Positions 10,101 to 50,191 of a stretch of 64,000 nucleotides of DNA are shown one piece after another. The stretch comes from Octopus vulgaris (lineage: Eukaryota), in NCBI GenBank assembly GCA_951406725.2, contig OX597829.1, positions 17,980,001 through 18,044,000 of the forward strand. The letters are read 5' to 3'. The notes under the pieces were generated by a model that was not told where the DNA came from, ran no database searches, and worked only from the letters and a program-made list of their open reading frames with translations. Numbering within the stretch: the first letter of the stretch is position 1; each line of letters opens with the position of its first letter. Both the position numbers and the translations under genes were made by a program.

Positions 10101-10264
10101 ACATAAAAATATACATATGTATATTATATTATATTATATTATATTATATTATATTATATTATATTATATTATATTATATTATATTAGAGGAATAATCAAA
10201 TCCGAAGCAGAACGAGTATCTCAAGTCATTTAGAACAATTTAAGTAAGGTAAGATGAATTTGAA

Positions 10265-10340
10265 ATCTTACAGCTGTTTCTGGGATAACCCAAGTGGTAG
10301 CTTAGCATGTCCACACAGAGAGCATTCCTTCATCAGAGAC
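10265..10340 (-). ncRNA. Type-I hammerhead ribozyme motif
   Basis: GTCT-CTGATGA-(long stem II)-GAAAC-AGCT-GTA-AGAT. Confidence 0.75.
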
Positions 10341-11056
10341 AAGATATGAATATTTCAGACGGTAAAAATTTACAGTTTACAAGGAATAAAATTTTTCAGT
10401 TTATAAGGAATAAAATTCTTCACAGTTTATAAGGAATAAAATAGAATAAAGAGTAAAGATTGTTAGAAGAATATATGCAGGAGAATAATGTTCACAACTC
10501 GTCTTTTTCCAGAGGATATGCATGTTGGTCGGTACCTCCATGAAGGTACATGTATTTAGTTAAAATCCAGGTACATTCAAGCGGTATTTTGGCAGTTTTT
10601 GAATAGTTTATTCATATTGTAAATGTGTATATGGAGCGAGAAAGTAAGATTAAACATAAATGGGTTTTGTGAGTGGATATACATGGCTATACCCACTAAA
10701 CCCATTTATGTCTATCTTAATTTCTCACAAAAAATTCTATCCTACAAAACCCATTTATATTTATCTTACCTTCTCGCTCCATATACACATTTACAATATG
10801 AATAAATCATTCAAAATACTGCCAAAATACCACCTGGATTTACCTGGAATTTTAACTAAGGACCTGTAGCTTCATGGAAGCACCAACCAACATCCATATC
10901 CTCTGGAAAAAGATGAGTTGTGAATATTATTCTCCTGCCTGTATTCTACCTTACTCTTTCTTCTTCTATTTACTCCTTCACTCTTTTGTTTTATTCCTTA
11001 TAAACGGTGAACTTTATTCCGTATAAACTAAATTTTCCCTCTCTAAAATATACATT

Positions 11057-11132
11057 GTCTCTGATGACGGGATCCCCAATGTGTGGACATGCTAAACTAC
11101 CACTTGGGTTATCCTAGAAACAGCTGTAAGAC
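11057..11132 (+). ncRNA. Type-I hammerhead ribozyme motif
   Basis: GTCT-CTGATGA-CGGGATCCCCAA...TTGGGTTATCCTA-GAAAC-AGCT-GTA^AGAC. Stem I is GTCT/AGAC; predicted cut after 11128. Confidence 0.85.
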
Positions 11133-11436
11133 TTCAAATTCACCTTACCCTAATTAAGTTATTTTAAATGACTTGAGATACACGTTCTGCTTTGGTTTTT
11201 GATTTTTCCTCTCATATAATATATACCTACTATAACGAAACCCTAACACGGATCCATAGATCGAGCCTTAGCTGTGATTCTGGAACCTAATGGTCGACCA
11301 ACTATAGCACTTATTCAGTGTACCTATTCACTTAGATCACAATTGAACTAAACTCTTCATATTCTCTCTCTCGCTCCCCCACTCTCTCTCTCTCACTCTC
11401 ACTCTTTCTATCTATCTCCCTCTCTCACTCTCACTC

Positions 11437-31445: not shown

Positions 31446-31569
31446 CCTGTGGGTAAGCATGCAATAAATGTGTGTATATGAGTGTGCGTATGTATGTATG
31501 TATGTATGTGTATATATATATATACATACAACAAACATATACATAAGCGACATACACACCCACACAAAG

Positions 31570-31800
<231 letters not shown>

Positions 31801-32410
31801 GTATATATAGTGATGCCTACCTACATACGCACACATACATAAATGAATGAATGTGTGAATGTACTGTCCTCCTACTAAGAAAGTGATTTTTGTGTCTTTC
31901 TGTTGCTCATTTTTATAGACTTAGTATATTACACATGCATACACACAAAAGATCACCCGCTGGCTTAGACGATTACGGACGAGTGTCTCAGTGTATGTGC
32001 GTACGTATGTGCCTCCCGAGACGTGAGGTTAGGGAAAGCCATTTGACATAAAAAAAACAGTCTCATAAACATCTATGAACGTGTATATATAAACTTCGGT
32101 TCTAAATGGTATATAAACTTTGTTTCTGACATGCGTTCAAGCTGCATACAGAGATTCCTGAACTGTTACAGGTGCCGTTTGTTCTCTTCTTATTTACGGT
32201 TTCTCACAGTTCGTGTCCTTCGCGAAGCTTCAAACGAAAACAAAGACTTAGCGTTTTATTAAAAGGGGATATTGAAAGTTTTTTTTACAACCTTCTAACA
32301 ATTATGTGCCCGTTGGAACCTTCAACTCCAGCTTTTCCTGGGGAATTGTTGATATGAAAGAATTTACATTTTTTTTTTGCCAAGATAACTCTGGCACCAA
32401 TGAGAACCAA

Positions 32411-38575: not shown

Positions 38576-38714
38576 CATTATTTACATTCGACGGATATTT
38601 GTCCTAATTTTGTTTGTTGTTAACACAACATTTCGACTGATATATCCTCCAGCCTTCATCAGGAAATTTGGGGAAATTTCGAACCTGGGTACTCTTTCCC
38701 AAGGTATTTTTCGA

Positions 38715-38781
<67 letters not shown>

Positions 38782-38957
38782 ACATCGAGAAATACCTTAA
38801 GAAGGAGAACCCAGGTTCGAAATTTCCCCAAGACACCTGATGAAGGCTGGAGGATATATCAGTCGAAACGTTGTGTTAACAACAAACAAGATGAGGACGA
38901 ATATCCGTCAAATGTAAATAATGTACATAATTCCTCATCTCTTAAATATAGAACTAT
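38576..38957. mobile_element. Fold-back element centred on (TAT)n, with a hammerhead on each arm
   Basis: Arms 38576-38720 and 38778-38923 are reverse complements; mirrored ORFs MGKFRTWVL appear on both strands. Confidence 0.88.
38833..38876 (+). ncRNA. Minimal hammerhead ribozyme motif
   Basis: ACAC-CTGATGA-AGGCTG-N10-CAGTC-GAAAC-GTT^GTGT; stem III is reduced to the palindrome AACGTT. Confidence 0.8.
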
Positions 38958-38977: not shown

Positions 38978-39086
<109 letters not shown>

Positions 39087-39507
39087 ACAATTCCTAAATA
39101 AGGGCAAACATTTTGGATGTATTTGGGGTACTTAATTGTGCTCATGACTTAGTGTTTGCTTCTTCCATGGGTATGAGTAAGTATCTCATTTATTTCTTTT
39201 GCCACATGTATCACTGACGAAGGGAGGGCTGTTATAAGCTAACCCTGAAATCGGTCCGATATGGTAATAATGGAATTTTTTAGAAATTTCTGTCGACCTT
39301 TTTTCGAGTAGCGTGCAGATTGTGAAAAAATTAATGGTTAATGACAATATGTCCAATTTTTCGGCATATTTGGCATTAGAAATTTTTTCGTTTGCCCTTA
39401 TTTAGGAATTGTTTATAAATTTAACCTTTAAAGGTATTTTTTAATATGCTGGCCATTGATAAAATTTTTTGGGAAACGAATTTTTTTCGAAAAAAATTTT
39501 ATCCTAC

Positions 39508-42340: not shown

Positions 42341-42749
42341 ATTAATAAAAGGAATTCCAACCTTGTCTGATTTTCACGTTTTATTTACAATCTTATAATG
42401 ATATAAGATAATATAATAAATATAATAAAATAAAATAATAGAATGTCAAATGTTCATTCTGATTGAACTAGTACTTTCATGCATTAAATTCTGCAATCTT
42501 CAGGTTCATGTAGTAGTGTTGACAGTCATGCTTCACAATTTTTGACAGTCAAACATTGTGAAGCATGACTGTCACCACTACTACATGAACCTGAAGATTG
42601 CAGAATTTAATGCATGAAAATACTAGTTCAATCAGAATGAACATTTAACATTCTATTATTTTATTTTATTTTATTACATTATATTATATTATATCATTAT
42701 AAGATTGTAAATAAAACGTGAAAATCAGACAAGGTTGGAATTCCTTTTA

Positions 42750-42886: not shown

Positions 42887-43134
42887 TAAAGTAAAATTTA
42901 ATTGACAGCATAATATGGCTGTCCTGTAACGGACGTTGTTATTGTTTATTAGCCCTATGAAACATCGTTTCTAGCTCGCTATACGACACATTATCTGTGT
43001 CCTTCCCGGTTCGAAAATATAAGGACACAGATAATGTGCCGTATATATAGCAGAGAAACTATGTTTCTTGAGGCTAATAAACAGTAACAACGTCCCTTCC
43101 GGCCATATTATATTGGCAAATAAATTTTACTTTA
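42887..43134. mobile_element. Imperfect fold-back element (pLTR-like)
   Basis: Ends TAAAGTAAAATTTA and TAAATTTTACTTTA; inner GACACATTATCTGTGTCCTT pairs with AAGGACACAGATAATGTGCC. Confidence 0.85.
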
Positions 43135-47585: not shown

Positions 47586-47613
47586 TTATATATATACATA
47601 TATATATATATAT

Positions 47614-47840
47614 TAATTTAAAGATAGTAGACCCCTACATCTCACCAAATAAAAAAAATTGTATTTTTATTTTAAATACCTACTGTTTTATTACTTGGTA
47701 ACACGTGTTTCATGAGGTAGGACCCCGAGGACGTACCTCATGAAACACGTGTTGCCAAGTAATAAAACAGTAGGTATTTAAAATAAAAATAAAAACTCTT
47801 TTTATTTGGTGAGATGTAGGGTTCTACTATCTCTAAATTA
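47614..47840. mobile_element. Fold-back element whose axis is a hammerhead stem II
   Basis: AACACGTGTTTC-ATGAGGTA-N14-TACCTCAT-GAAACACGTGTT; arms of about 105 bp. Confidence 0.88.
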
Positions 47841-48258
47841 AAATATATTTCTTCATTGAGAATAATTTGACCTCTGTTATGCTGGAATTTTTATTCCCTA
47901 AAAAATAATATATATAAAATCTAAATACACACAAACAACCGAAAAACTTATGAGCTAAATCTAGCCAGTATTGAACCCACAAATCAATGCTAACACGGCT
48001 CTTTGCGCATCCGATTGAGCCAAACGCTCACCAATCAGTTTCCTTCAAATTTAATGACTATATACTTAAACTGTCTGATACCTCATATAATATTTGTAAA
48101 CAAATGCGAAAGGCTTTGTGAGTTACGGAGAGAAAGCTACTATGGAAGACTCATTGTATATAATAACTGTATAATAATACATCATAATAATATATATTAT
48201 CCGATTTGAAGCGACAATTTTTAAATGTAAACAAATGGTCGAAAATGATGAAATCACC

Positions 48259-48742: not shown

Positions 48743-49001
48743 ATCAAAATAAGCAACAAGAATAACTCCGGTAATTTGGCACGATCGTTTCGCACTACAT
48801 CATTTTATTAAATGTTGTAAGTATTACAACAGTTTTAAAATGATGAGCACTCAAGTTGTAATACTTACAACATTTAATAAAATTCTTGTTGCTTATTTTG
48901 ATTATAATCACCCCATGGATTTATTTGGATAACACCATACAAAATTCTGGTGCATCTAACTTAAGTACCATATTCATTTGAATCTAAATTTTGCTGAACT
49001 T
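48739..49001. mobile_element. Fold-back copy of the 12558 hammerhead family
   Basis: The right part matches 12656-12774; the left part is the inverted stem II plus GAAACGATCGT segment. Confidence 0.85.
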
Positions 49002-49634: not shown

Positions 49635-49759
49635 GTATATATATAAATCTTTAGCTAAATATATTCAATAAGAATATTATATATTGAATTTATATTGAGT
49701 GCTCCATTGTATAAAAATATTAAAACTAATAAAGTATTTATATATTTAATACGAGCGAT

Positions 49760-49782
49760 ATATACATATATTTTTAATAATA

Positions 49783-49834
<52 letters not shown>

Positions 49835-50112
49835 AAAGAAAATCAATATCCAAACCCATCATAACGATATACCCGTGTGAAAGACATTATTGTATTAAAC
49901 ATATATATAAATAAATAAATATAAAAATATAAATATAATGTATAAAATAAATTTGATAATTAAAAAATTTTGAATTAATTACTTAAGCATCTTACGATCG
50001 TTTCGCAGAAGAGCTGCGAATACAATAATTTCTTTCACACGGGTATATCGTTATGATGAGATTGGATATTGATTCTCTTTATTAATAATAATAATAATAT
50101 ATTATTAAAAAA

Positions 50113-50120
<8 letters not shown>
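49760..50120. mobile_element. Asymmetric fold-back with a half hammerhead in the spacer
   Basis: Arms 49760-49895 and 50019-50120; minus 50017-49988 reads GCAG-CTCTT-CTGC-GAAAC-GATC-GTA-AGATG. Confidence 0.8.

Positions 50121-50191
<71 letters not shown>

Follow-up and report, generated by a model that had tools for sequence, protein, structure and literature searches.

The palindrome at 47606-47848 of the window, the whole 64,000-nt stretch of Octopus vulgaris DNA analysed here, consists of the 3' end of a Penelope-like retrotransposon (PLE) present twice, head to head and 5'-truncated in both copies, and we infer that the inverted pairs of this family probably arose when a single RNA was twin-primed from two AU-rich starts. 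The initial annotation had instead centred the palindrome on stem II of a hammerhead ribozyme, and had derived it from a cDNA that stopped after copying this stem, folded on it and primed its own back-synthesis.

The two arms are 91.0% identical over 244 nt, with the innermost 20 bp perfect, and they enclose a non-palindromic spacer of 14 nt (Table 1). Both read outward as GAAAC-ACGT-GTT, followed by GCC in the right arm and ACC in the left, so that the outward motifs and the non-palindromic centre that had been described are confirmed by the sequence. Several differences between the arms make a collapsed assembly unlikely. The left end of the palindrome merges into a (TA)n run, and the spacer matches positions -22..-9 of the parental element (the G of GAAAC being 0) with 2 substitutions. 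A cut site in the GTT triplet is predicted after 47753; because the 5' half of the core is absent, the hammerhead piece is inactive as it stands, and the locus itself is ordinary debris.

Table 1. Parts of the palindromic insertion, in window positions.
Feature	Position	Strand	Basis
Target microsatellite, (TA)n, on the left, adjoining a piece of a common SINE-like repeat	47587..47613	.	sequence; in this family, arms without tail end in (TA)n
Left arm: 3' end of the element, 5'-truncated at -8 and reaching the tail-less end, without tail	47614..47719	-	
Junction: 2-nt TA overlap common to both arms	47718..47719	.	
Spacer: parental -22..-9, belonging to the long stem II (3' side), retained by the right arm only	47720..47733	+	
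Right arm: copy 5'-truncated at -24 and reaching the first AT-rich end	47718..47848	+	
Hammerhead 3' half: GAAAC, palindromic ACGT stem III loop, GTT triplet, GCC (stem I 3' strand)	47742..47756	+	
3' tail of ~55-60 nt, right arm only, AT-rich end	47849..47909	+	

The family to which the arms belong has hundreds of copies in the O. vulgaris genome: the arm is a dispersed repeat with 43 scored matches at 91-100%, the 14-mer around GAAAC has 327 exact sites (3 control matches), and the 3'-end motif has 418 (0 control matches). Since both arms are copies of this dispersed family, the palindrome lies far beyond chance. Long copies contain ORF remnants ~1 kb upstream of the ribozyme with an RT, a Cys-rich linker and a GIY-YIG domain. 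D-x-G, GAPDSAQV and GLYRDD motifs are found in the RT remnants, and Atlas look-alikes, at 0.91-0.94, are eukaryotic RT clusters, RVT_1 included. A Pfam search of the RT piece returned no RT match, and a PDB search of it was likewise empty; the assignment as a PLE-type RT rests for this reason on the motifs and the look-alikes. For the endonuclease, a VY..YIG motif lies ~1 kb upstream of the ribozyme, with a Pfam GIY-YIG match at E=0.005, under the curated cut-off, and in many copies C-x-C-x4-C-x5-C precedes the VY motif. A Zn-finger-like Cys linker between RT and EN defines the Neptune clade (PMC8557442). One copy (L244) has the order pLTR-ORF-pLTR, its ribozyme region and tail continuing into the ORF's start and a second ribozyme following it; this partial tandem occurs in the family together with inverted truncated copies (35 head-to-head pairs among 83 sampled insertions) and an optional tail. 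Judged by these sequence features, the family can be classed as an EN+ PLE that appears Neptune-like by its Cys linker, with Nematis or Hydra as further possibilities. A reading of the palindrome as a MITE was dropped, the arms being 3' pieces of an RT-encoding element and the joints being scattered. In three copies (L153, L149 and L173) a long Asn-rich stretch lies in frame between the RT thumb and the endonuclease, and is comparable to the N-rich inserts reported in rotifer Penelopes (PMC3846280).

What the arms contain only in part is present whole in other copies. Intact members read GGC-CTGATGA, then 67-71 nt that begin with TTGGG and close with CCTCAT, then GAAAC-ACGT-GT(A/T)-GCC. The initial annotation had predicted a core of this kind immediately upstream of ATGAGGTA in non-palindromic members. 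The core is indeed upstream, with 244 exact GGCCTGATGATTGGGG sites genome-wide against 0 control matches, but it does not adjoin ATGAGGTA: GGC-CTGANGA sits 70 nt upstream of GAAAC, and none of the 245 loci fetched contains CTGANGAATGAGG, in which the core would adjoin ATGAGGTA. The stem II 5' strand, TTGGGG, is at -70..-40, and the partner strand of TACCTCAT in intact copies is TTGGGGTG (or TTGGGGTT), ~60 nt further upstream. With a CTGANGA core in the family, the identification of the locus motif as half a hammerhead holds.

The full-core set comprises 88 copies (92 rows minus 4 unrelated look-alikes), in which N7 is T, C, A or G and the remaining core letters are nearly fixed, a constancy that the search itself, by partly selecting core letters, helped to produce. 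In 43 hand-picked copies, 92.6% of cells in stems I and III and the base of stem II are paired, and the middle pair of stem I varies by subfamily (G-C in 22, A-U in 8, U-A in 6). The segment between the core halves forms a single long hairpin that pairs its ends in 83 of the 88 copies, with a median z of -2.1. At the closing position of stem II, U stands opposite U in 43/43 aligned copies, where a G10.1-C11.1 pair had been looked for; the cut-site triplet in the youngest subfamily is GUU, not GUA. Standard tools recovered little of this: RNAalifold on the plain sequence alignment did not return the hammerhead fold, unconstrained folding of whole ribozyme regions did not give it either (1 of 3 stretches lost the core), and Rfam reported no hammerhead on an intact copy or among the best 150 of 461 matches in the window. 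Stem II folded by itself gives the correct hairpin. On this comparative evidence the motif is classed as the 3' half of a Penelope-type type-I hammerhead whose stems I-III could form with covariation. Cleavage by the ribozyme was also considered as what sets the 5' ends of truncated copies, and was rejected, with only 2 of 114 sampled ends at +10..+12.

The position of the true stem II decides the reading of the axis. A search of both arms of the palindrome found no CTGANGA, in agreement with the proposal that this half had been replaced by a mirror image; the mirror, however, is of the stem II 3' strand only, and ATGAGGTA resembles the 5' strand because both complement the same 3' strand. The ATGAGGTA/TACCTCAT pairing is merely the inner 8 bp of an arm of ~106 bp and is not stem II of the hammerhead, whose real 5' strand is found in neither arm; nor is the 14-nt "loop" a ribozyme loop, being parental sequence retained by the longer arm. 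As the 5' strand was copied into neither arm, a fold of the cDNA on stem II was impossible, and in a modelled cDNA stopping at -24 the last 9 nt are unpaired. The two copies meet instead at their 2-nt overlap.

Nor do palindrome axes gather at stem II elsewhere in the genome, as had been expected. Of 70 arm ends, 10 fall in stem II (0.14/nt), against 16 in +15..+72 (0.28/nt) and 20 in -140..-71 (0.29/nt), so that ends are about half as dense there as in either flank (p=0.063 toward depletion). For the joints expected if the cDNA had folded on stem II, at either its inner or its basal helix, there are 0 genomic matches at <=1 mismatch; with several percent divergence among copies, one or two of these joints could escape. 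Pattern searches, which span gaps of <=400 nt (longer pairs come from position lists only), found a single pair with a 2-30-nt gap at this place genome-wide, the locus under study, along with 12 loci with gaps of 31-400 nt and 13 pairs anchored further 3' with scattered axes. Two other hammerhead palindromes in the window retain both ribozymes whole, with the axis well upstream. Priming on stem II did correctly predict the hammerhead, both 5' ends at the locus fall within the 3' side of the stem, and the short arm ends at -26 in three sampled pairs; weighed against the missing 5' strand, the unpaired cDNA end, the sparse arm ends, the absent joints and the two intact neighbours, we consider this mechanism very improbable. 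For this single copy a 2-bp snap-back in which stem II is uninvolved is possible, as is a small hotspot for arm ends at stem III, where 0..+14 holds 3 of the 70 sampled ends, not above the flanks.

Several further repeats were seen in the window and at family loci. The palindrome at 38576-38923 (348 nt, 86%) has a (TTA)n centre and a complete hammerhead with short stem II in each arm; it belongs to another PLE-like family, and its axis is ~85 nt upstream of the core. That at 10175-11223 (1.05 kb, 80%) has CTGATGA in its arms, then ~62 nt of hairpin-like sequence and GAAACAGCTGTA, and represents a second family in which stem II is long and the stem III loop palindromic. A single hammerhead-like motif (CTGACGA ... 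GAAAT) at 39213-39260 lies within a repeat bounded by 34-nt inverted ends (39076-39423). Other palindromes are at 42419-42675, 42887-43134, 48802-48883, 49758-50161 and 31482-31834, the first of them (96%, 1-nt spacer) with CTGAAGA on both arms and no GAAA match nearby. At many loci (L050, L051, L062, L067, L092, L096, L101, L111 and L124) a truncated ribozyme piece, -82..+31, sits within a different, young repeat whose copies are 98-99% alike across 3 kb or more. A common SINE-like repeat with a (CAT)n start has repeatedly used a single insertion site, ACTATC, close to the 3' end of the element (L201:1705-2079, L146, L017), and short arms in L144, L098, L128, L078, L139 and L114 end in or beside the self-complementary stem III sequence AACACGTGTT.

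The origin of the inverted pairs was addressed with a sample that is independent of the ribozyme, namely the first 100 3'-end sites out of 418 (contigs C1-C3). Arm ends were mapped with a profile from 30 natural copies, pairwise BLAST mapping having proved too noisy because of TA repeats and inverted references, and were then curated by hand to within ~10 nt in AT-rich stretches; the tail state of the arms was read in the sequence for most earlier loci. The 83 curated insertions comprise 35 pairs, 44 singles and 4 ambiguous cases that were dropped (L201, L216, L231, L237). Of these, L201 resembles a further pair in which the short arm bears the tail.

Two fixed AT-rich 3' ends, ~55 nt apart, occur in the family, and tail-less arms end at one fixed AT-rich site. 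Exactly one arm is tailed in 33 of the 35 pairs, neither in 2 and both in none, whereas singles are tailed in 21 of 44; against an independent choice for each arm, one tail per pair has p=1.7e-8. When 7 pairs whose 5' ends lie no more than 5 nt apart are set aside, 26 pairs with unequal arms remain; in 15 of these the 5'-longer arm has the tail and in 11 the 5'-shorter arm has it, and in 8 of these 11 the arms differ by >20 nt. With one-tail pairs whose ends are 6-40 nt apart, the shorter arm is tailed in 5 of 8 sampled (L181, L095, L098, L232, L104) and, when L238 is added, in 6 of 9. A copy cannot pass the start of its template, a strand copying itself after folding back leaves the shorter arm nested within the longer, and the 11 pairs with a tailed shorter arm are thus not products of a one-pass fold-back.

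The arms of a pair are related and their 5' ends are coupled. They rank near each other's closest relatives (median in the top 1.6% for 48 pairs, by a rank test used in place of arm-to-arm identity against the best other copy, which was uninformative), and shared rare alleles part pairs from their nearest neighbours weakly (17 vs 10 of 48). The 5' ends are within 40 nt of each other in 17 of 35 pairs, against 7.2 when shuffled (p=5e-5); in the other 18 they are >40 nt apart, in some by 500-1600 nt. Junctions are scattered from +85 to beyond -2000, and the joints have, within the limits of an approximate mapping, overlaps of 0-6 nt or short inserts, some locally templated; those of L019, L030 and L036 hold short local fold-back inserts, and L144 has a perfect fold at the stem-III palindrome (1568-1577) with a 10-nt overlap. 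A joint in L041 (1524-1608) contains a captured piece whose source lies ~1.2 kb upstream within the element and which itself forms a perfect palindrome by folding; this joint is a template jump plus a local fold-back.

A generic fold-back of the cDNA at short overlaps, giving a hairpin or palindromic intermediate from which the endonuclease trims the tail of either arm at an AT-rich site, would account directly for the excess of close 5' ends, for arms drawn from one template and for the fold in L144; self-priming has been proposed (PMC3846280), as has resolution of the tail by EN (PMC8557442). It would need a second, unobserved step for every tail on a shorter arm, it fits poorly with the 18 pairs whose 5' ends are far apart, and the tail has been mapped to two RT starts and not to a cut (PMC11167929), so we regard it as rather unlikely. 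We think it more doubtful still that two separate RNAs, held by a dimer of the element protein, were copied from both target ends and then joined. Such a dimer (the Poseidon protein is predicted to be dimeric; PMC11167929) would explain tails on either arm and distant 5' ends, but by itself leaves one tail per pair and coupled 5' ends unexplained, and no two-subfamily pair was seen among the 48 ranked, in which the worst single-arm rank was 0.37.

Under twin priming, the reading we favour, the endonuclease would cut both strands of the (TA)n target, and the two (TA)n ends would pair with the two AU-rich sites of a single element RNA, each site being used once. The two cDNAs would then run toward the RNA 5' end, often stopping close together, at a common broken RNA end, or else apart, and end-joining repair would fuse their 3' ends through overlaps of 0-6 nt or short templated inserts. 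The ribozyme would be a passenger, both cDNAs at this locus having stopped in the 3' side of stem II by chance. Arms from one template are expected here because twin priming copies the same RNA. In vitro, both strands of the target are nicked and extended by a Poseidon PLE protein, RT starting from two internal sites bounding the tail, and hammerhead mutants were without effect on insertion (PMC11167929). Against twin priming, two RTs on one RNA would require strand displacement, the coupled 5' ends are explained only with the added assumption of a shared RNA end or a shared stop, and the copy under study has its tail on the longer arm, which fits the geometry of a fold-back.

PLEs are already known for inverted truncated copies, tails on one side, microsatellite targets and hammerheads in the pLTR. 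For the origin of inverted pLTRs the published guess is self-priming (PMC3846280), and the stem II version first put forward for this palindrome is not supported by the data. One-sided tails are reported, without relation to the longer arm, in the accessible text of PMC8557442 and PMC3846280, and a literature search that took in the available parts of 10.64898/2026.07.22.740005 and PMC6765202 found tail side and arm length nowhere related. Counting one against the other is a cheap genomic test, and its result speaks for priming from the two target ends and against a simple fold-back. We advance only tentatively the combined proposition that inverted pLTRs arise by obligate twin priming and that the hammerhead of the family works, with a stem II of 70 nt and three helices closed by a U-U pair, and is missed by standard searches. 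Were obligate twin priming true, the one-sided tail and the head-to-head copy would be two faces of one reaction. The hammerhead suggests that some PLEs scored as ribozyme-less may carry one that short-stem descriptors miss.

The putative ribozyme resembles the minimal type-I hammerheads of PLEs, as far as these are described in the accessible text of PMC4209133, in its CUGANGA and GAAAC boxes, 2-bp stem III, palindromic 4-nt loop, short stem I and pLTR location. It differs in a stem II of 67-71 nt, against 6-8 bp, and in starting this stem with U opposite U, where the minimal hammerheads have a conserved G10.1-C11.1. In some Naiads the core halves are 35-50 nt apart (PMC8557442); we found no published 70-nt stem II in a PLE, and figures S2-S5 of PMC4209133 and file S2 of PMC8557442 may show one. 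With EN+ PLEs as described in PMC8557442 and PMC3846280, the octopus family shares the head-to-head 5'-truncated pLTR copy, the optional tail at one end, the microsatellite target, the partial tandem pLTR-ORF and an RT with C-terminal GIY-YIG, although its tail is longer (~55-60 nt against 30-40) and its 3' UTR of ~1 kb is unlike theirs. Poseidon PAc likewise has two RT start sites bounding the tail, an AT-rich target and extension of both strands, but its starts are in an AC-rich stem-loop inside the ORF, whereas the octopus starts are AU-rich and before the ORF (PMC11167929); the available text of that study gives no explanation of inverted pairs. As in Neptune PLEs, there is a C-terminal GIY-YIG, a Cys-rich linker between RT and EN and a (TA)n target; unlike in these, an Asn-rich stretch lies between RT and EN. 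In the twin priming of L1, the second target strand primes on the same RNA and a microhomology join leaves an inverted segment. There the outcome is an inversion without duplication, whereas the octopus cDNAs cover the same stretch of RNA and the product is a palindrome.
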